This document shows positions 15,393 to 32,289 of a stretch of DNA of 64,000 bases, one piece after another. Within the stretch, counting starts at the first letter, position 1. Every line of letters starts with the position of its first letter. A model generated the notes under the pieces. The model was not told the DNA's origin. It saw only the letters and a list, made by a program, of their open reading frames with translations, and made no database searches. This DNA comes from an uncultured Gemmatimonadales bacterium. Its GTDB lineage: Bacteria > Gemmatimonadota > Gemmatimonadetes > Longimicrobiales > Gaopeijiaceae. Location: contig CAWELD010000003.1 of NCBI GenBank assembly GCA_963809895.1, positions 672,001 through 736,000 of the forward strand, in the 5' to 3' direction. Made by a program: the position numbers and the translations under genes.

Positions 15393-15415
15393 ACCCGGCA
15401 CCCGGGGGAGTGACG

Positions 15416-17065
15416 ATGGCACGGGCACGGTCATGGATCCTGATACTGCTCCTGTCCGGCGTCACCACACCCGGACTCCGAGCGCAGGCGCCGGACGACC
15501 CGGTCTCCGAGGCCATCCGCCTCCGCCTCGAGCAGCTGAGGGAGCAGGGCGAGATGGCGCTCGCCGGGGTGGCGCTGGATGCGCGCTCGGGACTCGCGGA
15601 GCTCTACGAGCTGCGAGGGTTTCGGCCGCTCTGGACCAGCGCCGACCGGAGCGAGGCCCTGCGCCGGTTCGTGCATGGCGTGGAGGCCGACGGGCTCCGG
15701 CCCGCCGACTACCACGCCGGGGTCCTGGACGCGGCGGCACGGATCGGGGGATCCCTCGATGCCGAAGACGCAGCCGAGTTGGATCTTCTTCGCACCGATG
15801 CCTTCATCCGCGTCGCTCACGACCTTCACGGCGGACGCGTGGATCCCTCGGTCCTGGATCCCACCTGGCACGTGGACCGCGCTGGCGGCGCACTCTCTCC
15901 CGAGGCGCTGGACAGCCTGGCGTCCCAACCTTCGGTGTTGCGAGCGCTGGACTCGTTGCGTCCGCAACATCCCATCTATCGCGGGATGATGCAGGCGCTC
16001 GAACGGTACCGGCGACTTGCGTCCGACGGTGGCTGGCCGCGGCTCCCCGATTCGCTCTTCCTGGGGCCGGACTCGGTGGGACCCGAGGTGGAGGTGCTGC
16101 GACGGCGGCTGGTAGTGGAGGGGTTCCTGCCCCCGGGATCCCGAGGATCCCAGACGTACGATGCGCGCCTCGAGGATGCGGTGAAGGCCTTCCAGCACCT
16201 TCGGGGCCTCAACGAAGACGGCGTCGTCGGGCCCAGTACCGTCAGCGCGCTGAACGTGCCCGCGGCGGCGCGGGTCGAGGCGTTGCGCGTGAATCTCGAG
16301 CGGGCTCGCTGGGTGCTGCGCGAGCTTGAGGATACGGCGGTGGTGGTGAACATCGCCGGCCAGAAGGTCTACGTTCTGGAGGGAGACTCGGTGGCCCTGG
16401 AGATGCGGGCCGTGGTGGGCAAGGGGTACACGCGCACGCCCGTCTTCTCGGCCGCCATGCGCTATCTGGTCCTGAATCCCACCTGGACCGTGCCCAGGAG
16501 CATCAATGGTGAGATCCTCTCGCACATCCGTCGGGACCCCGGCTACCTCGCTTCTCAGGGATTCCAGATCCTGGACGCGGCGGGAGAGGAGGTGGATCCC
16601 GACTCGGTGGACTTCGGACGGTACAGCGGCGCCAGCTTTCCCTTCGTATTCCGCCAACGCCCCGGGCCCACCAACGCCCTCGGGCGAATCAAGTTCATGT
16701 TCCCCAACACCTACAACGTCTATCTGCACGACACGCCCGAGCGGAGCCTCTTCCAACGTGAGGAGCGGACCTTCAGCCACGGCTGCATTCGCGTGCAGGA
16801 TCCCATGGCGTTGGCGGCGGTGCTGCTGGGCCCCGAGAGCATGGCCCGGGCCCGTGAGGCGCTGGCGGGCCGGGAGACGCTGACGTTGGACCTGCCGGTA
16901 CCCCGGCTCGTGCTCGTGCTCTACTGGACGGCAGCCGTGGACCTCGACGGGGACGTGCACTTCTACCGCGACGTCTACGGACGCGACGGCGCCCTCCTGG
17001 AGGCGCTGGACGCTCCCGAGCCTCAGTCGTCGTCGACGTCGGGGAGCACGCCGGCTTCGCGGTAG
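15416..17065 (+). CDS. Murein L,D-transpeptidase (YcbB/LdtD-like)
   Basis: Signal peptide, PG-binding AVKAFQ..GL..DGVVG, NPTWTVP, YLHDTP, SHGCIR. Confidence 0.9.
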   Translation: MARARSWILILLLSGVTTPGLRAQAPDDPVSEAIRLRLEQLREQGEMALAGVALDARSGLAELYELRGFRPLWTSADRSEALRRFVHGVEADGLRPADYHAGVLDAAARIGGSLDAEDAAELDLLRTDAFIRVAHDLHGGRVDPSVLDPTWHVDRAGGALSPEALDSLASQPSVLRALDSLRPQHPIYRGMMQALERYRRLASDGGWPRLPDSLFLGPDSVGPEVEVLRRRLVVEGFLPPGSRGSQTYDARLEDAVKAFQHLRGLNEDGVVGPSTVSALNVPAAARVEALRVNLERARWVLRELEDTAVVVNIAGQKVYVLEGDSVALEMRAVVGKGYTRTPVFSAAMRYLVLNPTWTVPRSINGEILSHIRRDPGYLASQGFQILDAAGEEVDPDSVDFGRYSGASFPFVFRQRPGPTNALGRIKFMFPNTYNVYLHDTPERSLFQREERTFSHGCIRVQDPMALAAVLLGPESMARAREALAGRETLTLDLPVPRLVLVLYWTAAVDLDGDVHFYRDVYGRDGALLEALDAPEPQSSSTSGSTPASR

Positions 17066-18462
17066 GTCATCAGCTTGCGGTACAGCGTGCGGCGACTGAT
17101 GCCCAGCGTCCGGGCCGCCAGGCCCTTCTGCCAACGGCAGCGCTCCAATACCTGGAGGATGTACTCCTGCTCCAGGTGGGCCAGATCCCAACCCTCCTCG
17201 TGGGCCTTCTCGGTGAGTCCCGTTTCGGCACTGTCCAGCGCCGTTCGGGGCTCGAAGCGCAGGGGCTCCCCGTCTCCGGCCATGATCACCGCACGCTCCA
17301 TGGTGTTCTCCAGCTCGCGCACGTTTCCGGGCCACGAGTAGGCCATCATGCGGGAGAGCGTCTCGTGCGGCAGCTCAGGCGGATCCAGACCGTGCTCTTC
17401 GGCGAAGCGAAGACGGAAGTAGTTGGCCAACAAGGGAATGTCTGTCGGCCGTTCACGTAGAGGTGGAACTTCCACCGGGAACACGTCCAGACGGTAATAG
17501 AGGTCCTCCCGGAAGCGCCCCTCCCGGACCAGCGCCGCCAGGTCGGTGTTGGTGGCCGCGATGAGCCGGAAATCCACGGCCACCGGCGTGCGGGAGCCGA
17601 TGCGCTGAACACGCCGTTCCTGGAGCACCCGCAGGAGCTTGACCTGGATGTCCTCGGAGAGGGTGCTCACCTCGTCCAGGAAGAGGGTGCCGCCTGCCGC
17701 CTCCTCGATGAGGCCCGGCCGGCTCTGCACGGCGCCGGTGAAAGACCCCTTCATGTGCCCGAAGAGCTCCGACTCCAGCAGGGTGTCGGGAAGCGCCGAG
17801 CAGTTGACCGCCACGAAGGGGCGGCGGGACCGGTCCGAGAGGTCGTGGATGGCGTGCGCCACGAGCTCCTTCCCGGTGCCGGTCTCCCCGACGACGAGCA
17901 CCGTGGCACGCGTGGGGGCGACGCGCTCGATGGTGCGGAAGAGCCTGCGCATGGCCGGGGACCGCCCCACCAGGTCGCGTAGGCGATCCGAGGTCGCCAG
18001 GCGGCGGAGCTCGGCCACTTCGCGTCGCAGGGCCGCGTCTTCCGCGGCTCGCGACACCAACAGGAGGAGCTCGTCTTCCTTGAAGGGCTTCCGGATGTAG
18101 TCCCACGCGCCGAGCTTCATGGCCTCCACCGCGGATTCCACCGTGCCGAAGGCCGTCATCACGATGAAGCGGGCGTCGGTGCGCACGGACGGAAGCGCCG
18201 CGAGCACGTTCAGTCCGCTGAGGCGGGGAAGCTGGAGATCGAGGAGGACCACGTCGAAGGACTCCTGGTCCAGAGCCTTCAATGCTTCCTCTCCGTCGTC
18301 CACAGCCGTGACGCGGTAGTGGACCTCCTCGAGGACGTCGCTGACAAGCGACCGGATGGTGGCGTCGTCCTCGACCACCAGGACGCGGCCCGCGGACGGT
18401 GCCGTGCGGGGGTCGTCGGGTGCGGCGAAGTCGGACCTCGGCTGGTGATCGCGGACTCGCAC
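17023..18462 (-). CDS. Sigma54-dependent response regulator (REC-AAA+-Fis HTH, NtrC family)
   Basis: VLVVEDD, LLDLQLP, GETGTGKE, ESELFGHMKGSFTGA, LFLDEV, FREDLYYRL, WPGNVREL, LGISRRTLYRKL; start GTG 18462 is a best guess. Confidence 0.92.
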   Translation of the reverse strand: MRVRDHQPRSDFAAPDDPRTAPSAGRVLVVEDDATIRSLVSDVLEEVHYRVTAVDDGEEALKALDQESFDVVLLDLQLPRLSGLNVLAALPSVRTDARFIVMTAFGTVESAVEAMKLGAWDYIRKPFKEDELLLLVSRAAEDAALRREVAELRRLATSDRLRDLVGRSPAMRRLFRTIERVAPTRATVLVVGETGTGKELVAHAIHDLSDRSRRPFVAVNCSALPDTLLESELFGHMKGSFTGAVQSRPGLIEEAAGGTLFLDEVSTLSEDIQVKLLRVLQERRVQRIGSRTPVAVDFRLIAATNTDLAALVREGRFREDLYYRLDVFPVEVPPLRERPTDIPLLANYFRLRFAEEHGLDPPELPHETLSRMMAYSWPGNVRELENTMERAVIMAGDGEPLRFEPRTALDSAETGLTEKAHEEGWDLAHLEQEYILQVLERCRWQKGLAARTLGISRRTLYRKLMTYREAGVLPDVDDD

Positions 18463-18501
18463 GGGCTCTGCCGGAGTGCGCACCCTGCCTCCTGCGTTGG
18501 G

Positions 18502-18533
18502 TGGACGTCTGGACACCTGAGACAATCTGTCCC
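18502..18533. promoter_or_regulatory. Tandem putative enhancer/autoregulatory sites between regulator and kinase
   Basis: GAGACA-ATC-TGTCCC (18519-18533) and TGGACG-TCT-GGACAC (18502-18516) resemble the motif found beside the sigma54 promoters. Confidence 0.5.
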
Positions 18534-18687
18534 CGTTGCGCGCCCGGAGACTGTCGGGTGGGGGAGGGTGGCCGGTGTGGGGAAGCTCCCCACAGCCGAT
18601 GCCGGGGCCGGGACGACAGACGCGCTGCCCGAGTCGGCCATACTCTCCTTGTGGAGCTTCTGCGCAGATCCACGGGCGGAGACACCC

Positions 18688-20910
18688 ATGAACGGGTCCG
18701 GCACCGATCGGCGCCCCTGGCGGCGTGCCGATCCGAAACGGCGCATGGCGGCGGCGGGCCTGGTCCGCACCGTGGCCGAGGTCGCCAACGCCGCCACCTC
18801 TCTGGAGGACGGTCTCGCCGGCGTCCTCCCGATCCTCTGCAGGCACCTGGGCTGGCCGGTCGGCCACGCGTTTCTCGTCGAGGGCGACACCCTCCGCTCC
18901 ACGGATCTCTGGTACCTGGAAGGCGATCCCGCGCGCTTCGAGCGATTCCGCGAGCGCACCGGTGCCACGCCGGGGTGCCCCGACGCCTGCCTGGTCGCGG
19001 GAGTCGTCCACAGTGGCCGCGCCTCGTGGATCCCCGACGCGCGCACCGAACCGGGCCTCCTTCGCGCCGGATCGGACGCTGTCATCCGTAGCGGGCTACT
19101 TTTGCCCGTCCGGTGTGACGGTGAGATACCGGCGGTGCTGGAGCTGTGGGCCGACGAGGTGGTGGAGCGTGAGGCGGAGATCCTGGAAGTCATGGAGGCC
19201 GTGGGGACCCAGCTCGGCGTGGTGGCACTCCGTGAGCGGTCCCGGGCGTTCCTGGAGGCGTCGGAGGCCCGTCTGGGAGAGATCCTGGACATTTCCGCGG
19301 ATGCGGTGCTCGCCCTGGACTCCGAGGGTCGGATCGCACTGTTCAACGCGGGCGCTGAAGCCACCTTCGGATACTCCCGGGAGGAGGTCCTGGGGGAGCC
19401 TGTGGAGCGCCTGGTGCCCGATGGGCTGCGAGACACCCGTGCGGAGGGAGTGCGGGCCGTCGTCTCGGCCGACCAGGACTCCGGATCCGTCGTGGGCGGG
19501 CCGGGGCTGGACCTCCGGGGCCGCCACCGCGACGGGCACACCTTCCCGGTCAAGGCCCGGATCGCGCGGGTCACGGGCCCGCCTGATCCACTGTACGCCG
19601 TGGTCCTGCGCGACGTCACCGAAGAGCGTCGGGTCGCGGCGATCCAGCGAGCGCTGGCTGAGGCGGGTGAGGTCTTCGCGTCGTCGTTGGACGCGGTCGA
19701 GACGGTAAGGGGCGTCGCTCGAGTGGCGGTGGGGCATCTTGCCGAGTGCTGCGGAATCTACCTGTTCGACGAGACGGGCGGCGTCGAGCGGGTGGAGTTC
19801 GCCTGCGCCGAGGGAGGCGCCGGCGATTGCCACCTCGCCCGAGGGTGGCGGGCGTCCGAGGCGACGTCGCGCCTCGTGTCGGGCAGTGCGGGGGGCGCTC
19901 CCGTGCTCCTGACCCGTGACGAGACGCGGAATCTGCTCGGGAGTGACTCGGGAGCAGTGGGTACGGTCCTTCTGGTGCCCGTGATCGCGCATGAACGCCC
20001 GCTGGGCAGCATGGTCTTGATCCGGCGGGCGGGTCGGGAGTCCTTCGGGGACGGTGAGGTGGAGTTGGCCACGGAGCTGGCCCGTCGGACCGCCATCGCC
20101 CTGGAGGCGGCCGAGCTCTTCCAGACCACCCGGCGGGCGGTGCACACCCGCGACGAGATCCTGGGGATGGTGTGCCACGACCTGGGGACGCCGGTGAGTG
20201 CAGTCGCCATGGTGGTGGACCGGCTGCTGCGTCAGGCGCCCGAGGACGACCGGCGCGTACGCACACGGAGCTATCTGGAGGGGCTTCGCACCTCGGTGAG
20301 CCAGATGGAGCGGCTGATCCGCGACCTGCTGGACGTCCGCCAGATCGAAGCGGGGCGCTTCGTGGTCGAGCCCATCGCGCAGCCTCTGAACCCGATTCTG
20401 TGGGCTGCGGTGTCGGGGATGGAGGCGCGGGCGGGCCAGGACGCGGTCGAGGTGCTCAGCCCGGACGATGGGCTGCGCGTGCGGGCGGACCGGGACCGGC
20501 TGATTCAGCTCCTCTGGAACCTGCTCAGCAACGCACGGCGCGTGTCGCCCCCCGACAGCCCCGTGCGCGTGGAGGCCATCGAGGCTGGCGACGAGGTGGT
20601 GATCACGGTTCTGGACAGGGGCCCGGGCATTCCTCCCGACCAGGTCCCGTACCTCTTCGACCGCTTCGCCCAGGCGCGCAGGGTTCGGCGCGTGGGTGCC
20701 GGGCTGGGGCTCACCATCGCCCGCGAGATCGCCGAGGCCCACGGCGGTCGGATGTGGGTGGACACCGAGGTGGGGGTGGGGAGCGCTTTCCGGTTCACCC
20801 TTCCTCGGGTGCGTCCCCAGGCGCTCGAACGGGTTCCGCGTCCCAAGGCGGTGGCTGGACGAAACGACCCATCACGGGTCAGGCGCCGGGGACGGAACGA
20901 CCCTCGGTAG
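18688..20910 (+). CDS. GAF-PAS-GAF sensor histidine kinase (cytoplasmic)
   Basis: PAS (FNAGAEATFGY), H-box CHDLGTP, N-box NLLSNA, DRGPGI, GAGLGL; no TM segment; divergent from the response regulator. Confidence 0.9.
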   Translation: MNGSGTDRRPWRRADPKRRMAAAGLVRTVAEVANAATSLEDGLAGVLPILCRHLGWPVGHAFLVEGDTLRSTDLWYLEGDPARFERFRERTGATPGCPDACLVAGVVHSGRASWIPDARTEPGLLRAGSDAVIRSGLLLPVRCDGEIPAVLELWADEVVEREAEILEVMEAVGTQLGVVALRERSRAFLEASEARLGEILDISADAVLALDSEGRIALFNAGAEATFGYSREEVLGEPVERLVPDGLRDTRAEGVRAVVSADQDSGSVVGGPGLDLRGRHRDGHTFPVKARIARVTGPPDPLYAVVLRDVTEERRVAAIQRALAEAGEVFASSLDAVETVRGVARVAVGHLAECCGIYLFDETGGVERVEFACAEGGAGDCHLARGWRASEATSRLVSGSAGGAPVLLTRDETRNLLGSDSGAVGTVLLVPVIAHERPLGSMVLIRRAGRESFGDGEVELATELARRTAIALEAAELFQTTRRAVHTRDEILGMVCHDLGTPVSAVAMVVDRLLRQAPEDDRRVRTRSYLEGLRTSVSQMERLIRDLLDVRQIEAGRFVVEPIAQPLNPILWAAVSGMEARAGQDAVEVLSPDDGLRVRADRDRLIQLLWNLLSNARRVSPPDSPVRVEAIEAGDEVVITVLDRGPGIPPDQVPYLFDRFAQARRVRRVGAGLGLTIAREIAEAHGGRMWVDTEVGVGSAFRFTLPRVRPQALERVPRPKAVAGRNDPSRVRRRGRNDPR
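20856..20903 (+). promoter_or_regulatory. Two direct-repeated palindromic upstream activator sites
   Basis: TGGACGAAACGACCC (20856-20870) and GGGACGGAACGACCC (20889-20903), 33 bp apart, ~85-130 bp upstream of a sigma54 promoter. Confidence 0.6.
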
Positions 20911-20986
20911 CCGGGAGGGCCCTTCATGGAGACGACGAACGGCCTGGCGACACGGCGTTCCGCGTCGGTCGGACCCGCCGGAGTTC

Positions 20987-21002
20987 TGGCACGATCGGTG
21001 CA
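20987..21002 (+). promoter_or_regulatory. Sigma54 -24/-12 promoter
   Basis: TGGCACGATCGGTGCA (GG-N10-GC). Confidence 0.7.
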
Positions 21003-21012
21003 CTCAATACGC

Positions 21013-21274
21013 GCACAGGCTCGCCGACCCGGTGAGGTCGCCCTGGTCGACGACGAGGTCCTCGGGAGTCTGACTCCGAGACCCGGTTGCGAGCGCGCCG
21101 GTCGCAACGCCGCCTTCTCGGAAGAGGAGGCCACCTGACCTCGTTGGAGGAAGGGCAAGACAGACCGATCAGGCCGCCGCACGCGACGGTGTCAGACCGA
21201 GCGGATCGGTAGATCGCCGGCGGTTGGAAGCCCTCGGGGGATGCGTGAACGAACCCGGGGGCTTCCTTCGTTGT
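21013..21274 (+). ncRNA. Candidate sigma54-dependent structured non-coding RNA
   Basis: Lies between a sigma54 promoter and a 13-bp terminator-like hairpin; four-way junction plus further stems; no credible ORF inside the predicted transcript. Confidence 0.5.
21226..21274 (+). terminator. Intrinsic-terminator-like hairpin
   Basis: GGAAGCCCTCGGG (21226-21238) / CCCGGGGGCTTCC (21254-21266) followed by TTCGTTGT. Confidence 0.6.
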
Positions 21275-21451
21275 GGTCAGGGCGGGCGACGCACTCCCGT
21301 GGCGGGGCGCTTGCCCCCAGTGAGTGGTCCGCGTCAGTTGAGGAACATCGCTCGCCGCGCGCGGGCCAATCCCTCCTCGCTTCGCGTTGTCGTGGCTACG
21401 ATTCCTCCCACCTCCTCCGCTTCGGCACCGGGGCCACCCCCGGCGCACCGC

Positions 21452-22681
21452 ATGCCGCGACTCCCCAGGACCGTATGGGCTCTCGGCGTGGTGAGCCTGC
21501 TGACCGATCTGGCCAGCGACATGGCGTATCCGGTCCTGCCGGCCTTTCTGGTCGGGACGTTGGGAGCCACGGCCGTGGCCGTGGGGCTGATCGAGGGTGT
21601 GGCCGAGGCCACGGCCTCGCTCTTCAAGCTCGTCTCGGGCCGGCTGTCGGACCGGGTGGATCGGCGCAAGCCACTCGTGGTGACGGGCTACGGCCTGTCG
21701 GGGCTGGTGAAGCCGCTTCTGGCCCTGGTCACGGGCCCGTGGCAGGTGCTGGCCGTGCGCTTCGCGGATCGCACGGGGAAGGGGATTCGCTCGGCGCCGC
21801 GAGATGCGCTGCTGGCGGCGCACGCCCGTGGCGTGGGCCCCGGACGCGTATTCGGGCTGCACCGCAGCATGGATACCGCAGGGGCCATTGTCGGGCCTCT
21901 GGTGGCCACGGTCGTGCTGGCCCTGGCCCCGGGCCGCTTCCGGCTCCTGTTCGCCCTGACGCTGGTGCCGGGTCTGCTGGCCTTGGCGGTGCTGGTGGCC
22001 TTTGTCCGGGAAAGGCCCTATCGGCCACCGAGGGAGCCCGCCACCACGGCTGCGGTGGAATCGGACCGGCAGGAGCCGCGCCCGGCGGATCGCAGCCGTG
22101 TGCGCGACGTGCTCCGGCGGGAGCTGGTGGTCATCCTGATCATCACCGTGGTGTTCTCGGCCGGGAACTCCAGTGACGCCTTCCTTCTCCTGAGGGCCCA
22201 GGATCTGGGGGCCCCTGCCGGCCGACTCCCGCTGCTGTGGATGGTGCTCAACGTCGTGTATGCCTCCACGGCGTGGTGGGCGGGCCTGTGGAGTGACCGC
22301 ATCGGACGTCGTGCGGTCCTGGCGCTGGGCTTCGCGGTGTACGCGGGCACGTACCTTCTGCTGGCGAGTGGCACGGCGACCTCGGGACTCTGGGGCGTCT
22401 TCGCCCTCTATGGGCTCTACTTCGGCCTCACCGACGGTGTGCTGCGCGCGGCCGTCGCCTCGGCGGCGCCCCGAGCGCTGCGGGGGACGGCCTTCGGGAT
22501 CTACCACGCCCTCACCGGTGTCACGCTGCTCGGCGCCAGCCTGCTCGCCGGCTTCCTGTGGGAGCGAGTCGGGCCGCATGCGCCCTTCGTGGTGGGCGCG
22601 GCGACGGCCGGGGTGAGCGCGGTGCTGTGTCTCGTCCTGCTGCGGCCCCCCCGCTCGGAAGCCGAGGCCGTCGGCGCCTGA
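21452..22681 (+). CDS. MFS transporter
   Basis: VSLLTDLASDM, GRLSDRVDRRK, DRTGKGIRSAPRDAL, HRSMDTAGA; multiple TM segments. Confidence 0.9.
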   Translation: MPRLPRTVWALGVVSLLTDLASDMAYPVLPAFLVGTLGATAVAVGLIEGVAEATASLFKLVSGRLSDRVDRRKPLVVTGYGLSGLVKPLLALVTGPWQVLAVRFADRTGKGIRSAPRDALLAAHARGVGPGRVFGLHRSMDTAGAIVGPLVATVVLALAPGRFRLLFALTLVPGLLALAVLVAFVRERPYRPPREPATTAAVESDRQEPRPADRSRVRDVLRRELVVILIITVVFSAGNSSDAFLLLRAQDLGAPAGRLPLLWMVLNVVYASTAWWAGLWSDRIGRRAVLALGFAVYAGTYLLLASGTATSGLWGVFALYGLYFGLTDGVLRAAVASAAPRALRGTAFGIYHALTGVTLLGASLLAGFLWERVGPHAPFVVGAATAGVSAVLCLVLLRPPRSEAEAVGA

Positions 22682-22748
22682 GCGGGTCCGGATCCGGTAT
22701 ATTGGGAGCGCAGCCTCGCGACCGCTCACCGCGCCCCTGCCATTTGCC

Positions 22749-25700
22749 ATGCCGAACCGCCGTTCCCGCAGGAAGAAGAAGCGTTCGGACAACACTCGCC
22801 CGGCCCCCGACGGCAAAGGGCGTCGTCGGCGGTACCTCCTGTGGGCGTTCGGGGTCGTGGTGCTCGTCGGGGGCGCCCTGCTGGTTCTCGAGCTTCGGAC
22901 CTCCACGCTCCAGGCACGCTTCCTCTCCAGCGTGGGACGCCGGCTGCAGTACGAGGTGGCGGACGGACCCAGCCCGCGAATCCGGTTCCCGAGCTCGGGC
23001 CCCTACGATCAACGCCTCGGCTACACGGCCATTCCCCGGCTGCAGGGCGTCCTGGACCAGGCCGGGTTCCACGTCACGCAGCAGGCCCGCATCTCGGAGG
23101 AGCTGGCTCGATGGGTGGATCGCGGCCTCTTTCCCATCTACGAGGAGAAGCTCCAGGGTGGACTGACGCTCCGCGACCGTTCCGGCGAGCCGTTCCACCG
23201 GACACCGAGTCCCGCACGGGTCTACGTCGCGTTCGATTCGATACCCGAGCTGGTCTGGCGCAGCCTGCTCTTCATCGAGAACCGGGAGTTCCTGGACGAG
23301 CGGCATCCACGGCGGAATCCCGCCGTGGAATGGGACCGCCTGGCCAAGGCGGTGCTGGAGATGGGACTGCGGGCGGTGGGGAGCGAACGCAACGTTCCCG
23401 GTGGCAGCACCCTGGCCACCCAGCTGGAGAAGTTCCGGCACTCCCCGGAGGGCCGCACGGGCTCGGCCAGGGAGAAGCTCCGCCAGATGGCGTCCGCCTC
23501 GCTGCGTGCCTACCGGACCGGACCCGTCACGCTGGACGAGCAGCGCAGGATCGTACGCGACTACCTGAACTCCGTCCCCCTGGCGGCTCAGCGGGGCCAC
23601 GGCGAGGTCATCGGCACGGCCGACGGGCTGTGGGCCTGGTACGGGGAGCCCTTCGAGCGCACCAATCACATCCTTCGCGGCGTGGATCTCACTCCGGCTG
23701 AGGCGGCCGAGCGTCCGCGGGTGTTCAGAGAGGCGGTGAGCCTCCTGGTGGCCCACAGGCGGCCCTCGTACTACCTGGCCCAGGAGCAGGGGCGCGCCGA
23801 GTTGCGCACTCTCACGGACAGCTATCTCCGGCTGATGGCGGGCTCCGGAGTGGTCGACGACTCGCTGGCTCGGGCAGCGCAGGAGGCGAGCGCCACGCCC
23901 TTGGTGCGAGCGCCGGAGCGGCCTCCGGTGCCGTTCGTGGAGCGCAAGGCCGCCGACCAGCTTCGCACGTACCTGTTGAGCCTCCTGGAGGTGGGGAGCC
24001 TCTACGACCTGGACCGCTACGATCTGACCGTGTCCGCGACCCTGGACATGCGGGTGCAGCGGGCCGTGGCGGCGCTCTTCGACTCCCTCACCGACGCCTC
24101 CTGGGTCCGGCGCAGCACCTTCGCCGGTGACCGGCTCCTGTCCAGGGGCGATCCGGCCCAGGTCATCTACACCTTCACGCTGCTGGAGACCACGCCGCTG
24201 GGAAACGCGGTCCGGGTGCAGACGGACAACTACAACGGACCCCTCAGCCTGAGCCAGGCCGGTCGTCTCGAGTTGGGCTCTACGGCCAAGCTGCGCACGT
24301 TGGTCACCTACCTGGAGGTGATGGCCGGTCTGCATGCACGTTTCTCGGTGCTCCCGACGGACTCGCTGGCCCGGGTCGTCGTCCCGCCCCAGGACCGTCT
24401 GGCGCGCTGGATGCTGGAGTACCTGCGAGCGAATCCCACCGTCGATCTGCGCACGACGCTGGCGGCGGCCATGCAGCGCACCTACTCGGCCAGCCCCGCC
24501 GAGCGCTTCGCCACCGGCGGGGGCGTGCAGACCTTTTCCAATTTCGATGCGGCCTACGACGGCAGGACCATGACGGTCCTGGACGCGTTCCGGAACTCGG
24601 TGAACCTGCCGTCGGTCCGGGTGATGCGGGACATCGTTCAGCACTACATGTACGGTGACGGGTCCACCGCCCGCATGCTCGAAGACGTGAACGACCCCGC
24701 TCGGCAGGAATACCTGGCGCGCTTCGCCGACCGCGAAGGGCAGACGTTCTTGCGACAGTTCTACGCCAAGTATCGGGGACACACGCTGGCCGAGATCATG
24801 GAGCTGCTGGTGCGGGACCGTGCCCTCGGGCCGCTCCGGACCGCCTACGCCTTCCGGGCCGTGGCGCCCGATGCGGACCTGCCGGCCTTCGCGTCGTTCC
24901 TGGAGACCCACACGCCCTACGCCACGCTCACGCCGGCGGCGGTGGAGGCTCTCTATCGCCAGAGCGATCCCTCCTCCTGGACGCTGAACGACCTCGGCTA
25001 CCTGGCCCGCGTGCACCCCCTGGAGCTCTGGCTCGTGCGCGAGCTGCTCGAGACTCCTGAGCTCACGGCGAGCCAGGTCGTGGAGCGGAGCGCCGACGTT
25101 CGCCAGGAGGTGTACGCCTGGCTCTTCCGAACCCGGCGCAGAAACGCCCAGGACCAGCGCATCCGCACCATCCTGGAGTTGGAGGCCTTCCAGGAGATCC
25201 ACCGCGGCTGGAAGCGGCTGGGGTACCCGTTCGACAACATCGTGCCCTCGTTCGGCACCGCGATCGGGAGCTCGGGTGATCGACCGCTGGCCCTGGCAGA
25301 GCTCGTCGGGATCATCCTGAACGGGGGAGTGCGCTACCCCGTGGTGCGGGCGGCCAGCCTGGACTTCGCCCACGGCACGCCGTTCGAGACCCGCTTCCGG
25401 CGGGATCAGGCCGCGGGCGAGCGGGTGCTGGATCCGGTGGTGGCCCAGGTGGCGAAGGAGGCGCTGTCCGAGGTCGTGGAAAACGGGACGGCGCGCCGCG
25501 TGAAAGGGGCGGTGCCCGGCCCGGACGGACGGCCCCTCGCCATGGGCGGCAAGACCGGGACCGGAGACAACCGTTATCGGGTCTTCGGTCCCGGTGGGCG
25601 CCTGGTGGAATCGCGCGCGGTGAATCGCACGGCCACCTTCGCCTTCTTCATGGGAGATCGCTGGTTCGGCGTCGTGACGGCGTATGTGCCCGGGGGTGCT

Positions 25701-25817: not shown

Positions 25818-26270
25818 CTACTTCTTGACGATGTCGATCTTGCGGCCCATGGCCTCCTTCTTCTTCGGAAGGTGGACCGTCAGGACGCCGTCGGCGAACT
25901 CCGCCTTGATCTTCTCCACGTCCACGGCCCTCGGCAGGGCAAAGCTGCGCTCGAAGGAGCCGTTGCTCCTCTCGAGGAGGTGCCAACGGCCCTCCTGCTC
26001 CTCGCGCTCGGTCTTCTTCTCACCCTTGAGCACGAGCATGTCCTTGTCGACGTCGATCTGCACGTCGTTGGCCGTCATGCCGGGCAGCTCCGAGGTGAGG
26101 AGGTACTCCCCCTCGACTTCCTTGAGGTCGGTGGCCGGGAGCCAGGCCACGGTCTCGGCTGCGTTGAAGGTGGGGAGCGAGAGCCCGAAGACCCGGTTCA
26201 CCCGGTCCTGAAGGCTCTCGAGCTCCTGCCACGGGTTCCGGGTGCGGGTCCACGGTGTCAGCGCGTTCAT
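25818..26270 (-). CDS. Small heat-shock protein Hsp20/alpha-crystallin
   Basis: ELPGM, LKGEKK, ERSNGSFERSFALP, DGVLTVHLPK. Confidence 0.95.
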   Translation of the reverse strand: MNALTPWTRTRNPWQELESLQDRVNRVFGLSLPTFNAAETVAWLPATDLKEVEGEYLLTSELPGMTANDVQIDVDKDMLVLKGEKKTEREEQEGRWHLLERSNGSFERSFALPRAVDVEKIKAEFADGVLTVHLPKKKEAMGRKIDIVKK

Positions 26271-26340
26271 GATTCACTCCTGGTTCGGTCGGGTGCCGTC
26301 CGTCCTCGTGGACGGAGGCCGCATCAGCACCTGCAGGGAG

Positions 26341-26356
26341 CGCATCGAGCGTGCCA
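26341..26356 (-). promoter_or_regulatory. Sigma54 promoter for hsp20
   Basis: Minus strand TGGCACGCTCGATGCG (GG-N10-GC). Confidence 0.7.
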
Positions 26357-26416
26357 CGCGGCGGGGCCGGTGCGTAGCGCCGGCGTCGGGGCTCCTGTGG
26401 CGGAAGGGCTCGCCCT

Positions 26417-26431
26417 GGGACATCCTGGCAC
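26417..26431. promoter_or_regulatory. Putative enhancer site upstream of the hsp20 promoter
   Basis: GGGACA-TCC-TGGCAC matches the shared motif. Confidence 0.5.
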
Positions 26432-26493
26432 CGGGCTGCGCCGGGCTCTTTCGTACGCCTCGAACCGAGGACCGGGGCGCCGGATGCGTCGGG

Positions 26494-27915
26494 TCAGAGC
26501 AGAGGGGCCACGAGCCGCGTGAGGCGTTCCAGTAGTCGCTCCAGCCACGGGCGAGAGCCGTGGAGGGCCAGGGATTGCTCCACGGCACGGGTGAGATCGG
26601 CGTGGAAGAGTGAGTCCATGGTGGCACCCACCCCGGGGTCGTCCACCAGCAGCGCCGACTCGTCGTTGAGACGCAGGGAACGGTTGTCCAGGTTGAGGCT
26701 CCCGATGCTCACCCACCGCCCGTCGGCGACCACGGTCTTGGCGTGTATCATGGTGGGCTGGTATTCGAAGATGCGCACGCCGCCCGCCAGCAGCTCGTCG
26801 TAATAGGCCCGCCCGGCCCAGCGGGTGCTGGGCACGTCCGTACGGGCGCCGGGCACGAGAATGCGCACGTCCACGCCGCGATCGGCGGCCTCCAGGAGGA
26901 GGCGGCGCATGGTGGGCGTCGGCACGAAGTAGGAGTTCGTCAGGTACAGCGTGCGCCGTGCCGACGCCAGCGTGAGCGTGAGATAGCGGTCCGCGGGTCG
27001 GGTGCCGACGCCGGGACCCGACACCAGATACCCAGCGCGGACGGCGCCGTCGGCGGGCGGTGGGTCCTTCGGTACCCCCTCGAGCGTGGGCGCCGCGCCA
27101 AAGAGCAGCGTGTCGGCCCGGAGCTCTCCCGTCGCCTCGGCCCAGGCGGCCGTGAAGACTCCTTGCACGACGGCCACCACCGGCCCCTGCACGCGTGCGC
27201 TGGTGTCGCGCCAGGGCAGCTCCCCCGGCGCGTCGCCCAACCAGCGATCGTCGAAGCCGAATCCTCCCGTATACGCGACCGTCCCGTCCACGACCACGCT
27301 GCGGGCGTGATGCCGATGCTGGACGCGGTGGAGGGTGGACCAGCGCACGGGCCGCAGGGTCGCCACCCTGGCTCCCGCTCGCGTCAGGTCATCGGAGATG
27401 GCGTCCAGCATGGTCCGGCACCCGAATCCGTCACCCAGCAGCATCACTTCGATGCCGGCTCGGGCCCGTGCGGAGAGGACCGCACTCAGTGAGTCCGCCA
27501 GAGCGCCGGGGCCGCAGTAGTAGGCCAGGACCGTGATGGAGCGCCGCGCCGCACGCAGATCCTCGAGCATGCTCCGGAAGGTGTGGGCGTCGGTCAGGAC
27601 CTCGACGTGGTTCCCTTCCACGAGCGGAGTCTCCGCGACGCCCCCGGCGAGGGCCGCGAACCCCGAATCGCCGGGTGCCGGGAGCCCTGGGGTAACGACG
27701 CTTCGCACAGGCGATCCCCGGGTGATGTCGGAGACCCGATGCACCGCCTCGCCGGCCGCCACCACCGCGACCAGCGCGAGAAACGCCAGCGCCAGACGAC
27801 GTCGGACCGGGATCGGCGGCGGCACCGACGGGGTATCGCAGTCGACGGTCGCGTCTGCGGGCGCGGCCGAAGGGTCCGTGCCCGGACCTGTCGGATGGGA
27901 GTCCAGAGAAGACAT
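26494..27915 (-). CDS. Cardiolipin synthase-like phospholipase D
   Basis: C-terminal HAKTVVAD...GSLNLDNRS; N-terminal motif is the variant HARSVVVD...GG; one TM segment. Confidence 0.85.
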   Translation of the reverse strand: MSSLDSHPTGPGTDPSAAPADATVDCDTPSVPPPIPVRRRLALAFLALVAVVAAGEAVHRVSDITRGSPVRSVVTPGLPAPGDSGFAALAGGVAETPLVEGNHVEVLTDAHTFRSMLEDLRAARRSITVLAYYCGPGALADSLSAVLSARARAGIEVMLLGDGFGCRTMLDAISDDLTRAGARVATLRPVRWSTLHRVQHRHHARSVVVDGTVAYTGGFGFDDRWLGDAPGELPWRDTSARVQGPVVAVVQGVFTAAWAEATGELRADTLLFGAAPTLEGVPKDPPPADGAVRAGYLVSGPGVGTRPADRYLTLTLASARRTLYLTNSYFVPTPTMRRLLLEAADRGVDVRILVPGARTDVPSTRWAGRAYYDELLAGGVRIFEYQPTMIHAKTVVADGRWVSIGSLNLDNRSLRLNDESALLVDDPGVGATMDSLFHADLTRAVEQSLALHGSRPWLERLLERLTRLVAPLL

Positions 27916-29008
27916 GGTCAGGATTCAATCACGTGTGCGTCCCCTCGTTCTCGGCACCGTGTTGGCGGCCTTGAGCGTCGTCAGCGGTTGCGCGTCGACG
28001 GGACTGCGCGCGCGCCCGCAGCGAATGGAGGTCCCGCCTCGCGCCGGCACCGGTGGCCTCACCTGGGTCAGCGCCGCCCCCGAAGGAGACAGCGCCGACC
28101 TCACTTCGTGGCGTGGGGCCGTAGGTCCGGCCGTCCGGCTCTCGCCCGGGGGGCTGACGGTTGCACCGCCCGCGGACCAGCTCGCTGTGGTGAGCTGGAA
28201 CGTCCACGTGGGCGGAGGGGACCTGATCCGCCTGGTCACCGACCTGCGCAGCGGTGAGCTCACCGGTGGTACTCCGGTCCACGACTTCGTGCTCCTTCTC
28301 CAGGAGGCCTACCGGGCAGGAGAACAGCCCCTCGGCCCGCTCTCGGGGTCGCAGGCCCCGCGGCGCATCGACGCGGCGCCGCCCCGGGGTCCCCGGCTGG
28401 ACGTCGTGGAGGTCGCCCGGACGCTGGGTCTCGAGCTTCTCTACGTACCGTCCATGGGCAACGGTGACGGGTCGTCGGGCGCCGAGGACCGGGGCAACGC
28501 CATCCTGTCGACGCGGCGGCTCTCGAACGTCACCGCCATCGTGCTTCCGTTCGAAGGCCAGCGGCGCGTGGCCGTTTCGGGCCACGTCGCCGGGCGTACG
28601 TCGTCGGGCTCGCCGTGGCGACTCCGGGTGGTGAGCGCCCATCTGGACAGCCGCACGCGCTGGAGTCGCATCCTGGACAGCTTCGGGTCGGCCCGGGCTC
28701 GTCAGGCCCGTGCACTTCTGGATGCGCTCCCGACCGATCCAACGGTTCTGGGCGCGGACCTCAATACGTGGGGCCCTCGCTTCACGGAGAACGCCCCCGA
28801 GGTGCTCGGTCGGCGATTCCAGGGAGTCCAGCGAGGTCCCGGCGGCACCTTCACGCTGGCCGGCGTCGTGCAGAGGCGTTTGGACTACCTGGTCTTCGAC
28901 CGGGCGGTGACCGCCTCCACTGGAATGGACGGCGCGGCGGTGGTCCGCGTGGAAGACCGTTACGGCTCCGACCACCATCCCCTGGTGACGATCCTCGACC
29001 TGGGCTGA
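27914..29008 (+). CDS. Endonuclease/exonuclease/phosphatase family lipoprotein
   Basis: Lipobox VSGC; SWNVH, LLQE, GNAILS, GADLN, RLDY, SDHHP. Confidence 0.85.
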   Translation: MVRIQSRVRPLVLGTVLAALSVVSGCASTGLRARPQRMEVPPRAGTGGLTWVSAAPEGDSADLTSWRGAVGPAVRLSPGGLTVAPPADQLAVVSWNVHVGGGDLIRLVTDLRSGELTGGTPVHDFVLLLQEAYRAGEQPLGPLSGSQAPRRIDAAPPRGPRLDVVEVARTLGLELLYVPSMGNGDGSSGAEDRGNAILSTRRLSNVTAIVLPFEGQRRVAVSGHVAGRTSSGSPWRLRVVSAHLDSRTRWSRILDSFGSARARQARALLDALPTDPTVLGADLNTWGPRFTENAPEVLGRRFQGVQRGPGGTFTLAGVVQRRLDYLVFDRAVTASTGMDGAAVVRVEDRYGSDHHPLVTILDLG

Positions 29009-29017
29009 CCGGCCCGA

Positions 29018-29317
29018 TCAGTCCTCCGCCAGCTCCACTTCGATGGAGCAGTTGGTCACGAGGGCGGCGATGGCTCCCAGGGCTGCCCACACGGGCGCCA
29101 CGACGGCGCCGACCACGCCCACCGTGAGGGGCGCCTCGATGAGGGTGTTGCCGTCGTCGTTCTTCACGATGATCCGGCGCACGTTCCCCTGGTGGACCAG
29201 CTCCTTCACCTTGGCCAGCAGCGTGTCACCACGGACCCGATGCTCCTCGCGGGTCAACGTGGCGTGCTCTCCGGCTGATCTTCCGATCTCCGGGTCCGGG
29301 GTCGCATAGGTCTCCAT
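29018..29317 (-). CDS. DUF4342 family protein
   Basis: KVKELVHQGNVRRIIVK...EAPLTVGVVG...AALVTNCSIEV. Confidence 0.85.
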   Translation of the reverse strand: METYATPDPEIGRSAGEHATLTREEHRVRGDTLLAKVKELVHQGNVRRIIVKNDDGNTLIEAPLTVGVVGAVVAPVWAALGAIAALVTNCSIEVELAED

Positions 29318-30003
29318 GGTTCCTTCCTCGAGGGTGACGTGGAGAGGGTCGTGGACAGATAGCGCGAAAACCAGGCGGCGGCATGGTTCGCCACGGCGTC
29401 CAGGGCGCCCGGTTCCTCGAACAGGTGTGTGGCGCCCGGGACCACCACGACTTCGGTGGGCGCCTTCATCAGCGCCCTGGCCTGTCTGTTGAGCTCGAGC
29501 ACGGTGAGGTCGTGTCCGCCCACGATCAGGAGGGTGGGTGCGAGGACCGCCGGCAGCGCCGCGGCCGCCAGATCGGGGCGCCCGCCCCGGGACACGACGG
29601 CGTCCACGAGGTGGGGGCACCGGGCCGCGGCCACCAGCGCCGCCGCGGCGCCCGTGCTGGCGCCGAAGAGGCCGATCGGCAGCGCCTCGGTCACGTGCCG
29701 CCCCGCCGCCCACTCCAGGAGGTGCACGACACGGTCCGAGAGCAGGGCGATATCGAACCGGATGTGAGCGCTGGTCTCGTCCACGGCCTCCTCGGCCGGC
29801 GTGAGCAGGTCCGCCAGCAGGGTCCCCAGGCCGTAGGCCCGCAACTCCGCTGCCACGTGACGATTCCTGGTGCTGAAACGGCTGCTGCCGCTCCCGTGGG
29901 CGAAGACCACCAGTCCCCGAGGGTCTCGGGGAATGATGAGGTCGCCTCGCAGGAAGACGTCGCCGGCCGGGATGTGGGCTTCCATCTCCTCGTACGGGTA
30001 CAT
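29254..30003 (-). CDS. Dienelactone-hydrolase-like alpha/beta hydrolase
   Basis: FAHGSGSSRFSTRN, RFDI, GASTG, SRGGRPDLA, GATHLFEEPG. Confidence 0.88.
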   Translation of the reverse strand: MYPYEEMEAHIPAGDVFLRGDLIIPRDPRGLVVFAHGSGSSRFSTRNRHVAAELRAYGLGTLLADLLTPAEEAVDETSAHIRFDIALLSDRVVHLLEWAAGRHVTEALPIGLFGASTGAAAALVAAARCPHLVDAVVSRGGRPDLAAAALPAVLAPTLLIVGGHDLTVLELNRQARALMKAPTEVVVVPGATHLFEEPGALDAVANHAAAWFSRYLSTTLSTSPSRKEPWRPMRPRTRRSEDQPESTPR

Positions 30004-30018
30004 GACATCCTCCTCGGG

Positions 30019-30483
30019 TCAGCGGGTGCTCTCCACCGTGGCGCGTCGGTAGGTCCCCTGCAGGCGCGCCTCACCCAGCACGTGCTCTCCCAGGGCCTTC
30101 TTCAGGTGGGCCGGGCTCGAGCCGGGCCGAAGCCCCAGACGGCGATCGAGGGCGAAGAGCTGGAACCGGTAGCGGTGCGTGCCCGGCGGTGGGCAGGGTC
30201 CCTGGTAGCGCGCGTTGCCCCAGGAGTTCGCTCCGTGGATTCCCGGTAGGCCGCCCGGTGCGGAAGCCGAGGGAAGGGAGCGCGTGTCGGGAGGGATGTC
30301 CCACAGCACCCAGTGGGTCCACAGACCGGCCGGCGCATCGGGGTCGTCCAACACGAGCGCGAAGCTCTTCGTGCCCTCCGGCACCTCGGTCCACTCCAGC
30401 GGAGGTGAGCGGTCTTCGCCGTCGCACGTGAACTCGGGCGGAATCGGACCGGCGTTCGGGAAGGCGGGGCTGGAGAGCTTCAT
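30019..30483 (-). CDS. YbhB/YbcL (PEBP/Raf kinase inhibitor-like) protein
   Basis: SSPAF, SPPLEW, DDPDAP, HW, GPCPP.GTHRYRF. Confidence 0.92.
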   Translation of the reverse strand: MKLSSPAFPNAGPIPPEFTCDGEDRSPPLEWTEVPEGTKSFALVLDDPDAPAGLWTHWVLWDIPPDTRSLPSASAPGGLPGIHGANSWGNARYQGPCPPPGTHRYRFQLFALDRRLGLRPGSSPAHLKKALGEHVLGEARLQGTYRRATVESTR

Positions 30484-31157
30484 GGCGTTGGCTCCGGGAG
30501 CTTGGGTTGGCGGTGGGTCCCGGCGCTCCGCAGCAGCCGGCGGACCTCTTCGTCGTCGAGTTGGGGGAATCGTTGGTACCACAGGCTGACCGCAGTCAGG
30601 GAATCCGCTTCGTGCACGCACACGACTTCGTCTGCCACGTCGCGCAGCGCGTCGGCAACCGCGGGAGCCGCCACCGGTGCGGCGACCACGACCCGGCGGG
30701 CTCCCCTCTGCCGCAATGACCGAATGGCGGCTCGCATGGTGGCGCCGGTCGCGATGCCGTCGTCCACCAGGAGCACGGTGCTGCCCTCCACGGATAACGG
30801 GGGACGCCCTTCCCGGTAGGCCTCTTCGCGTCGGCGGAGGTCCACCTCTTCGGAGTCCGCCAGCTGGTCCACGTCGGACGGCGTAAGCCCCAGATGCTGC
30901 ACCACGTCGGGGTTGAAGACCCGAACCCCACCCCGTGCCACCGCGCCCACGGCCAGCTCGGGCTGGCCCGGGGCGCCCAGCTTTCGCGCCAGGAGAATGT
31001 CCAGGGGTGCGCGCAACGCGTGGGCCACCTCCGCACCGATGGGCACACCACCTCGCGGAAGCGCGATCACCACCACGTCGTCACGACCCCGGAATGCGCC
31101 GAGCAGATCCGCCAGCTGGCGTCCGGCGTCGACACGATCCTCGAATTGCCGGAACAT
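30480..31157 (-). CDS. Phosphoribosyltransferase (Rv0571c/Rv2030c N-domain type)
   Basis: FEDRVDAGRQLA, LPRGGVP, RKLGAP..PELA, VDDGIATGATM. Confidence 0.9.
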   Translation of the reverse strand: MFRQFEDRVDAGRQLADLLGAFRGRDDVVVIALPRGGVPIGAEVAHALRAPLDILLARKLGAPGQPELAVGAVARGGVRVFNPDVVQHLGLTPSDVDQLADSEEVDLRRREEAYREGRPPLSVEGSTVLLVDDGIATGATMRAAIRSLRQRGARRVVVAAPVAAPAVADALRDVADEVVCVHEADSLTAVSLWYQRFPQLDDEEVRRLLRSAGTHRQPKLPEPTP

Positions 31158-31160
31158 GAC

Positions 31161-31583
31161 TCAGACGTGGACCTGCGTCTTCAGCAGCCGGCCGATCTCG
31201 GCCGTCTCGCCCACGAGCGCCTGCAACACGTCGTCCAACGAGAGAAGGCCCACGACCCTGAAGTCCAGATCCCTCACCACGAGCCTCCGGATCTCTCCGT
31301 CGGCCATGATGGCGAGCGCCTCCTGCACGTCGGCGTCGGCAGCGATGGACTTGACCGGCTCCGTCATGACCTCGGCCACCGATACGTCGGAGGGACTGAA
31401 CTCCCGCGCGACGCAACGGGTCACGATGTCGCGATCTGTGAGAATTCCCTCGGGCCGGCGCGCCTCGTCCACCACGACCAGCGTTCCCACGTGGTGGGCC
31501 GCCATCTCGAGCGCCGCCTCCAGCAGGCTCTGCATGCGCGTGATGGTCTGCACGTCGCGGGTGCAGATGTCGAGAACCGTCAT
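31161..31583 (-). CDS. CBS domain pair protein
   Basis: HVGTLVVV, GILTDRDIV, IRRLVV, GLLSLDD. Confidence 0.92.
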   Translation of the reverse strand: MTVLDICTRDVQTITRMQSLLEAALEMAAHHVGTLVVVDEARRPEGILTDRDIVTRCVAREFSPSDVSVAEVMTEPVKSIAADADVQEALAIMADGEIRRLVVRDLDFRVVGLLSLDDVLQALVGETAEIGRLLKTQVHV

Positions 31584-31617
31584 GGCTACCTCCAGCCCCT
31601 GCGGGGCTCTGCTCGGG

Positions 31618-32289
31618 TCAGTACGCGGCCGGCAGCCGGTTGGCTACCGTCAGCTCGTTGTGCACGAATGAGATCCCCGGCGCCGACCAGGCGGCCCGCC
31701 CGGCTTCCTGCTTCTCCGCCCAGGAGCCCACCATCCCGGTGAGCCACACCTCCGAGGCCTCCACCCGGACATCCACGTGCTCGGCGTCCACCTCGGCGCT
31801 GCGCGTGAAGGCGGCCCGGATCTTCTCCCGGATGTCGATGGGGCGGGCTCGCGGCCGGATCGCGATGCGGTTGCTCACCCCTCGTACGCCACGAAGCTCG
31901 CGGACCAGGCTCTCGGCTCGGGTGCGCTGGAACTGCCACTCCACCTCGCCTTCCAGGGCGACGAAGCCGTTGACGACGACGACCCGGATGCGGTCTTCCG
32001 GCACGGCGTCGCTCATTTCGAGGGCGAGGACCGCCTCGCTGGCGATGTCCGTGTCGGTGCGCGTCCGACGTGGACCGACCTGCACCTCCAGGTCGTTCGC
32101 CACGGCTCGCACCCCGCGCACCCGGCACGCGGCCCGTTCGGCGGCGTGCTTCTGCCGATAACTCGCCACCTCACCGTGGAGTGTCACCACGCCCTCGGTG
32201 ACGCCGACGCCGATGCCCGCGGCGTCCAGGCTCGCCTCCCAGGCGAGCTCCTCTTCCACTTCCGTTCGGATCTTGTCGTCGGCGTCCAT
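31618..32289 (-). CDS. Triple BON-domain (OsmY-like) protein
   Basis: [34 protein letters not shown]. Confidence 0.92.

Follow-up and report, generated by a model that had tools for sequence, protein, structure and literature searches.

A family of structured RNAs in Gemmatimonadota and its sigma54-associated form in an island of stress genes

We found a non-coding RNA gene of about 255 nt, preceded by a sigma54 promoter, in a 64,000-nt stretch (the window, whose positions serve as coordinates throughout) of the 5.3-Mb, 95%-complete genome of an uncultured Gemmatimonadales bacterium (G000). The gene is almost certainly real, and it belongs to an undescribed family of structured RNAs in Gemmatimonadota, for which no Rfam family or paper was found. 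An initial sequence-only reading of the window had proposed an unannotated structured RNA at this place, and the proposal is supported by conservation across the family. The RNA is compact, conserved and probably very abundant; it is transcribed from a promoter of its own, codes for no protein, is followed by no constant gene and leaves no pairing seed free, and it most likely acts through its shape on a protein or complex. We suggest that it is an independent molecule acting in trans in this way during growth arrest, like the raiA/ModT RNAs, and give this reading a probability of about 0.5.

An RNA family centred on Gemmatimonadota

BLAST in 40 relatives, together with an exact pattern, returned only two true homologues (in genomes G004 and G009, both keeping the promoter), so covariance and sequence models were needed. 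A sequence-only model gave 14 plausible members in 150 genomes of the bacterial family, and a structured model (R2) built from these 14 sequences found full-length matches in 21 of 150 genomes of the phylum, spread over four families; within the genus, the RNA is present in 10 of 20 genomes. A pattern scan of GTDB contigs yielded at least 120 loci, of which 48 were confirmed by the model (44 from Gemmatimonadota, three from Steroidobacteraceae and one unclassified), and a metagenome scan yielded 84 loci, 82 of them confirmed. The total is 165 full-length matches (130 non-redundant), almost all from Gemmatimonadota apart from the three in Steroidobacteraceae. As a negative control, viral sequences gave no model match in 80 loci carrying the two most conserved motifs (80 of the 120 loci from a loose-pattern scan were scored) nor in three strict-pattern loci. 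Twelve viral loci of another pattern were judged by eye and by hidden Markov model (HMM) to be chance. None of 150 genomes from the phylum of G654 has a match; a 24.9-bit match in 150 genomes of the phylum of G653 and a 25-bit match among 120 other genomes of the family of G529 were read as chance, and six weak matches to a model R1 (L056–L061) and two partial R2 matches (L083 and L084) were dropped on the same ground. Locus L053 (27 bits, part of P4/P5 absent) was used for context only.

Rfam 15 recognises none of this. Its single match in the window is a tRNA, and no family matches the region 20700-21600 (searched to E 10, best E 1.3) or eight other member loci (searched to E 0.1). No paper describing the family was found in a literature search that did not extend to the supplements of large motif surveys (e.g. 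PMC11109978 and PMC5737381), and the main text of 2026 preprints, whose supplements were likewise not covered, lacks the string 'Gemmat'.

The genome under study has a second copy (L085, C3:1350764-1350986, minus strand) between lipB and a convergent rnhA, with no sigma54 motif; the two paralogues are identical at 107 of 211 aligned positions. The three Steroidobacteraceae members (L236, L216 and L263) come from separate assemblies, are 65–90% identical and share their synteny (def, a LysM protein, the RNA, then a pyridoxal phosphate enzyme), while only one of 121 sampled Steroidobacteraceae genomes has the RNA. These copies are likely a transfer out of Gemmatimonadota. Such a jump into one clade, together with the patchy presence at many sites, two copies in several genomes and tandem copies (L235 and L402), would suit a selfish or mobile RNA element that is moved by proteins encoded elsewhere and is abundant through nuclease resistance. 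We consider this improbable, since the lipB-rnhA position is stable across genera, each copy has its own promoter, genomes hold only one or two copies, no nuclease, transposase or reverse transcriptase lies beside the annotated loci, and none of the 83 viral pattern loci has a model match.

Some members depart from the usual form. Eight loci (L067, L071, L073, L076, L365–L367 and L369) have a longer 5' part with about 150 nt of extra hairpins, four loci of this subtype lying downstream of rplU-rpmA, while at L235, L402, L431, and L268 with L310 a pair of copies is no more than 2 kb apart or shares a contig.

In 34 of 66 family loci the next gene is encoded on the other strand, and the flanking genes belong to many unrelated families, which argues that the family is not a leader. 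Nor do its members share a reading frame (the best common start column holds in 29 of 74). The 70-codon open reading frame (ORF) at 20926-21138 begins upstream of the promoter, has no Pfam match and is not kept in G004 or G009, which speaks against a conserved protein. This open frame, along with the sigma54 control, is what could be cited for an mRNA of a small protein or for a base-pairing small RNA of the Qrr type. Both are very improbable, as the conserved unpaired stretches that a pairing RNA would use are consumed by internal pairings and Hfq was not found in the genome.

Known housekeeping RNAs were considered as well. ARAGORN finds no tmRNA in the window, the tmRNA of the genome lying elsewhere, and RNase P RNA and signal recognition particle (SRP) RNA were both matched elsewhere in the genome (SRP below the cut-off). 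The family fold is branched and knotted, not the long rod with a central bubble of 6S RNA. A role as a 6S replacement was also set aside: in the four families that have the RNA, Rfam finds no 6S in any genome, whether or not that genome carries it, so that this profile is uninformative. In the zapA-rny gap (G000:C3, ~803845-803930), where Rfam does find 6S in distant families of the phylum, we noted by eye a short, bubble-containing rod and a promoter-like site. This may be a 6S RNA reduced in size, which would escape Rfam in all 121 of the 121 genomes from the four families. Pairing of the invariant loop with the anti-Shine-Dalgarno sequence was rejected, the window copy lacking GAGGU.

We then looked at public metatranscriptomes. 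Part of the region 20700-21600 is present in twelve runs from nine studies, and four runs from four studies, chosen by their match to this stretch, were compared over 19601-22600. In three of them a single contig falls on the RNA (21024-21236, 21024-21233 and 21051-21219) with at most two differing letters; the uncovered flanks of these runs are no evidence on their own. In the fourth, the contigs listed between 21054 and 21219 reach depths of 14,704–25,000, whereas the flanks have depths of 2.2 (kinase), 4.2 (MFS gene) and 8.7–20.9 (just downstream of the RNA). Its kinase and MFS contigs differ by 5–6 letters in about 240, indicating that the source is a near relative. These contig depths hint at a discrete, very abundant RNA. 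As to the discrete transcript expected by the sequence-only reading, contigs from four studies cover the RNA but do not give its strand or ends.

A compact fold with three or four long-range pairings

The region 21013-21280 folds better than its shuffled controls (z = -2.88, with 3 of 200 shuffles equally good). When runs of complementary columns were sought without guidance in a plain MAFFT alignment, the best-ranking ones were the 3' hairpin, P4, P9 and three crossing helices. The full pseudoknotted structure, which was derived from the same sequences on which it was scored, has 86.7% paired cells and a covariation of 0.447, against 74.8% and 0.232 in 500 shuffles and a covariation of 0.09–0.18 when partners are slid. 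The three crossing helices are 92–96% paired, and the P7 columns covary although P7 is absent from the model. Covariation and folding energy had both been named beforehand as checks, and both favour a structured RNA.

The crossing helices (pseudoknots A, B and C) are all complete in the window copy, a combination reached in 1 of 20,000 shuffles of the partner segments, which were selected after viewing the alignment. In 112 members outside model building, we compared each loop with its own partner and with the partner of another member, relatedness being uncorrected. Pseudoknot A forms 5.46 bp with its own partner versus 4.38 bp, and pseudoknot C 4.61 versus 3.80 bp, each with 0 of 300 shuffles as good; two control pairs gave 3.54 versus 3.41 (9/300) and 3.70 versus 3.64 (72/300). 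Pseudoknot B was excluded from this test on pattern-found loci because the pattern itself requires it. A fourth pairing (pseudoknot D, the P7 loop with a 5' loop) is found in 70 non-sigma54 members (5.53 versus 4.83 bp, the best of 200 shuffles reaching 5.26), but was not seen in eight sigma54 members.

The sequence-only reading had drawn a different architecture, a four-way junction in which a 10-bp stem (21051-60/21137-46) closes three hairpins. The stem does pair fully in the window copy and belongs to the minimum-energy fold there, but as a closing stem it is private to this genome. In 73 other aligned members, the same columns pair in only 167 of 483 cells (35%), and the conserved fold uses these bases in the P3 hairpin and the P6/P7 helices, so the junction is not the family fold. 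Two of the three hairpins (P4 and P5) are present as drawn, and the first (21061-80) turns out to be the longer conserved P3. The second stem (P8) and the 13-bp hairpin are likewise both found in the sequence. That hairpin had been called terminator-like; its 13 bp are there, but its loop pairs with another loop in pseudoknot C, and a terminator scan does not call it. It is probably a leaky terminator, and low-depth contigs extend past it to 21411 in one RNA run.

The window copy and G181 (L074) carry the same three simultaneous changes in the otherwise invariant P4 loop and its partner (21096 and the 21099-21219 region), which look compensatory and hint at a base triple. This co-change, seen in 2 of 43 members found without the pattern, together with the compact multi-pseudoknot fold and short invariant core, raises the question of a ribozyme, or of an RNA binding a metabolite or ion in trans, in which the P4 loop and pseudoknot B would form the active or binding site. 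We think this unlikely: no Rfam ribozyme or riboswitch matches, few positions beyond the P4 loop and its partner reach 90% conservation, and the compared RNA contigs show no joints.

The sigma54 subtype and its neighbourhood

The sigma54 motif of the window copy (GG at 20988-89, GC at 21000-01, predicted start ~21013) occurs in its strict form nine times in the genome, and its position is unchanged in G004 and G009 despite diverged flanks. Both this promoter and the two upstream palindromic sites (Table 1) noted in the sequence-only reading are confirmed. Among 130 members, 11 have the sigma54 motif, most others having sigma70-like elements by eye. In a tree of 74 cores the sigma54 copies are not one clade, though the RNA is short, deep branches are weak and no clade test was applied. 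Enhancer-like sites with up to two mismatches precede 6 of 10 sigma54 copies, versus 3 of 66 other copies and 4.8% of random windows, the pattern having been derived from two of the ten copies scored. The GGGAC half-site is found in 19 of 21 sigma54-like upstream regions of islands (several of them not true promoters or counted from close kin) versus a 41.5% background. The MFS gene downstream was thought to have a promoter of its own. A -10 hexamer is present at 21397, but there is no matching -35, and no sigma70 promoter is predicted in 20700-21600.

A different palindrome, TCRGG-N5-CCYGA, has a fixed position in many non-sigma54 copies (e.g. L269, L251, L307, L080 and L072), about 105–111 nt before the core and immediately ahead of the -35 region. 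It occurs in 23 of 79 upstream regions when one mismatch is allowed, versus a 5.6% background, and three such copies also lie within stress islands; it may be the site of a second regulator.

The RNA had been placed directly behind a two-component system. It does lie downstream of the kinase gene, but the activator gene is on the opposite strand and oriented away from the kinase, so the RNA gene is directly behind the kinase only. The activator is one of about 19 of the NtrC type in the genome. Its orthologues in G004, G009 and G002 (68–69% identical) stand beside the RNA, adjacent and divergent, with no kinase between; the activator is thus adjacent in four genomes of the genus, the kinase intervening in G000. 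Of the nine genomes that carry a sigma54 copy, seven have an orthologue (E<=1e-140), versus 42 of 141 others, kin not being independent; the remaining two have a partial, interrupted match (G471) and none (G477, 76% complete). A first control, in which the activator was absent from 5 of 5 non-sigma54 genomes, is weakened by this wider search of 150 genomes. The activator therefore tends to accompany the sigma54 subtype but does not predict it. Given its adjacency and this co-occurrence, the NtrC-type regulator plausibly activates the RNA; it likely activates the island as well.

As for the kinase, it was not found in G004, G009 or G002, all of which have the adjacent activator; 37–38% matches exist in G470 and G438, the 38% relative of G438 lying about 2 kb from its activator. 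A link of the kinase to the RNA is unsupported. Of the idea that the RNA is the output of the adjacent pair, only the activator half is plausible, and a dedicated output of the pair is unsupported, as only 11 of 130 members have a sigma54 promoter, the kinase was not found in the three genomes named and most regulator-bearing genomes showed no sigma54 copy.

The protein sponge proposed in the sequence-only reading, here taken as one for CsrA/RsmA or Hfq after the manner of CsrB, RsmZ or CrcZ, could draw on a sigma54 promoter beside an NtrC-type activator, a half-site common to island promoters and eight GGA motifs in the window-copy core. Neither CsrA nor Hfq (PF17209) was found in the 95%-complete genome, and CsrA is not enriched with the RNA (4 of 21 RNA-positive versus 31 of 129 RNA-negative genomes of one phylum sample). 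Of the eight GGA positions, only one, inside the P3 stem, is retained by more than 5 of 73 relatives. The GGA count per core is near that expected from composition (6.4 versus 5.6 in shuffles), with no retention in loops. We thus regard a sponge as highly improbable.

Annotation around ten sigma54 copies, up to 10 kb each side, revealed the following genes: USP, CBS, BON, Hsp20, phosphoribosyltransferase, a hydrolase-like protein and erythromycin esterase, and further RtcB with archease, RtcA, LonB, dodecin, PolX-like, PPDK and a cation ATPase. Counting 16 marker families, 8 of 10 sigma54 copies have at least two of them within about 10 kb, versus 3 of 21 others (Fisher p 0.0007, with no correction for kinship or marker choice). 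By the same marker count, only 3 of 260 bins of G000 qualify, two of them being this island. The island spans ~9600-43300, ends about 500 nt before a tRNA-Met (43787-43859) and equals its flanks in G+C. In the window at 4456-9112, the codon model splits the TrkH/TrkA genes for potassium transport into several pieces, among them two TrkH C-terminal parts and two TrkA parts.

This context bears on whether the RNA of the sigma54 subtype acts in cis as a leader, either in addition or as its main role. In that case the 3' hairpin would terminate transcription conditionally, with pseudoknot C capturing its loop, and read-through into the downstream island genes would depend on a switch between the 10-bp stem and the conserved fold. 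A same-strand downstream gene in 8 of 9 sigma54 copies versus 24 of 57 others, the low-depth contigs continuing beyond the hairpin, and the alternative fold available in the window copy are all consistent with this. On the other hand, the alternative stem is not conserved (the 35% of cells given above), the same core faces a convergent gene in 33 of 57 other members, and the genes downstream of sigma54 copies vary (MFS, PolX-like, RtcB, PPDK and an ABC transporter). A leader function appears unlikely.

Table 1. Features of the RNA locus and the surrounding island
Feature	Position	Strand	Basis and remarks
NtrC-type sigma54 activator (receiver, AAA+, Fis helix-turn-helix)	17023..18378	-	Pfam; start by codon model
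GAF-PAS-GAF histidine kinase	18691..20910	+	Pfam
Distal enhancer-like site, imperfect GGGAC-N5-GTCCC type	20856..20870		Within 3' end of kinase gene; 2 palindrome mismatches
Proximal enhancer-like site	20889..20903		1 mismatch; 98 nt upstream of promoter
sigma54 -24/-12 promoter	20987..21002	+	Sequence
Non-coding RNA gene, ~255 nt	21013..21269	+	Ends predicted; model R2 match 21054-21269 (this copy is in the R2 training set); RNA-run contigs
P2, 5' hairpin of sigma54 subtype, variable	21026..21048	+	6/7 pairs; in G004 and G009, counterparts judged by eye
P3 hairpin; loop 21069-74 pairs with 21191-96 (pseudoknot A)	21057..21083	+	Alignment, held-out test
P4 hairpin, near-invariant loop; 21096-21102 pairs with 21216-22 (pseudoknot B)	21086..21108	+	Alignment
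P5 hairpin, variable loop; GGAA tetraloop private to window copy	21112..21131	+	Alignment
P6 (3 bp) around P7 (21139-42/21147-50)	21134..21155	+	Alignment
P8 stem (21164-70/21204-10) around P9 (21173-78/21185-90)	21164..21210	+	Alignment
Pseudoknot C, P9 loop with 3' hairpin loop	21180-85 with 21242-47	+	Alignment, held-out test
3' hairpin, 13 bp (21226-38/21254-66), conserved 15-nt loop, short U-rich tail	21226..21266	+	
MFS transporter downstream of RNA gene	21452..22681	+	Pfam; not a conserved neighbour, relatives differ
baeRF10	9612-10751		
Stress-island core: Hsp20, phospholipase D, DUF4342, hydrolase-like protein, PEBP, phosphoribosyltransferase, CBS, BON	25818..32289		
Island continuation: USP and GH94 glucan enzyme (2,771 aa)	32584-41969		
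sigma54-like promoters in island	26356, 32353	-	Face Hsp20 and BON-CBS operon

Possible mode of action and known systems

Our preferred reading, a trans-acting RNA that works by its shape, may be put as follows. P3–P9 and the 3' hairpin would fold into one compact particle locked by three long-range pairings, and when growth stops its surface could scaffold a protein or a large complex, for example the ribosome, or act as a decoy for it. The usual form of the family would be a sigma70-type gene at varied sites (lipB-rnhA in G000), and the window copy the shorter of two paralogues, lacking the fourth pairing and brought under the control of sigma54 and an NtrC-type activator in an island for dormancy or low-oxygen stress. 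Such a placement would let the cell make far more of the RNA under that stress.

Several observations weigh against this reading. The distribution is patchy (21 of 150 phylum genomes), and neither a protein gene co-travelling with the family nor a partner protein or target of the RNA was found. The nested part of the conserved fold is 15 kcal/mol less stable in the window copy than the 10-bp-stem fold, pseudoknots being unscored. Metatranscriptomic contigs give neither strand, true ends nor a reliable level, their depths sum over related organisms, and there is no DNA-run control. The island markers were picked from the sigma54 loci themselves, and the sigma54 copies of G471 and G438 lie outside such islands. 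The activator occurs in 49 of 150 family genomes, most with no detected sigma54 copy, including G152 and G452, whose detected RNA copy has no sigma54 motif. As to oxygen sensing, the PAS domain of the kinase is most like that of FixL but has an Arg aligned to the His of its RHDS stretch, which in FixL is the haem ligand.

The low-oxygen or growth-arrest signal is suggested by known regulons. DosR-regulon genes include RtcB, archease and release-factor-like genes, and the stable small RNA DrrS reportedly belongs to the same regulon. In the parts of the accounts available to us, similar genes (USPs, a small heat-shock protein, a phospholipid-binding protein, a cation ATPase and ribonucleotide reductase) make up the lxa locus of Burkholderia cenocepacia, which responds to low oxygen by induction and shows overlap with the DosR regulon (PMC3721108), DosR-related genes include a phosphoribosyltransferase, USPs, ctpF and nrdZ (PMC7753917), and in Myxococcus xanthus an oxygen regulon is controlled by NmpR, which is of the NtrC type and depends on sigma54 (PMC11841059). 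As far as these parts go, the island shares genes of this kind with the lxa locus and the DosR regulon, and the NtrC-type and sigma54 control with NmpR; it differs in its activator site, which is unlike the GCGCA-N5-TGCGC of NmpR and unlike the lxa motif, and in its structured RNA, nothing of comparable kind having been found in them.

A bolder version, which we think has a small chance of being right, is that the RNA belongs to a new class of large RNA machine, part of a dormancy programme and with no dedicated protein gene, whose housekeeping form has four knots and whose sigma54-induced form has three. Made at a very high level, it might bind ribosomes and park or protect them, or assemble into RNA-only oligomers by loop pairings, in oxygen-limited arrest. 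RtcB, archease, release-factor-like and USP genes beside the sigma54-induced form provide the context for such a reading.

To our knowledge, large, well-folded bacterial RNAs with no assigned function are few (raiA/ModT, OLE, ROOL and GOLLD), most of them stemming from phages or Gram-positive bacteria. The present family is a new addition; it shows strong covariation and comes from a phylum that is widespread in soil and sediment. Its sigma54 subtype supplies a candidate regulator and regulon, and hence a testable condition, which is rare for orphan RNAs. The paralogue pair in one genome, with and without one long-range pairing, makes a natural comparison, and a size of about 250–310 nt suits probing and cryo-EM.

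Among regulated bacterial RNAs, CrcZ (CbrAB) and Qrr (LuxO) have a sigma54 promoter and upstream activator sites beside an NtrC-type regulator, an arrangement that recurs here in the sigma54 subtype only. CrcZ, Qrr and CsrB/RsmY/RsmZ are loosely folded and depend on Hfq or CsrA, to which end they expose a pairing seed or single-stranded motifs in several copies; by contrast, the present RNA has a compact fold and motifs that are not conserved, and the genome yielded neither protein. Riboswitches and other cis-leaders always precede same-strand genes of one function, unlike this family with its 34 of 66 convergent loci, though 8 of 9 sigma54 copies do have a same-strand gene. ROOL, GOLLD and OLE resemble it as orphan structured RNAs with kissing loops and pseudoknots; the family RNA is less than half their size and has no tRNA or prophage context, partner gene or Rfam match. 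In the part of the account available, a covarying loop pair of ROOL proved to be intermolecular (PMC12286853), and by analogy the loop pairs of our family could also form between molecules.

Rfam holds a raiA model, and this gives no match in the window, in 20700-21600 or in eight other member loci (Rfam 15). As far as the consulted parts of the reports describe them, the raiA/ModT RNAs are independent and very abundant, have about 200 nt with several helices and two covarying pseudoknots, act at the transition to stationary phase, and have a biochemical function that is still open (PMC10861870 and PMC11706538). A stand-alone gene with covarying helices and pseudoknots is what we find here, too. 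The differences are that raiA/ModT belongs to other phyla (Bacillota and Actinomycetota), and that the Gemmatimonadota RNA has three or four long-range pairings, one of them through the loop of the 3' hairpin, is multi-copy, includes a sigma54 subtype and lacks the fixed raiA/comFC neighbourhood. By analogy, then, raiA/ModT may serve as the closest working model for this unrelated family.

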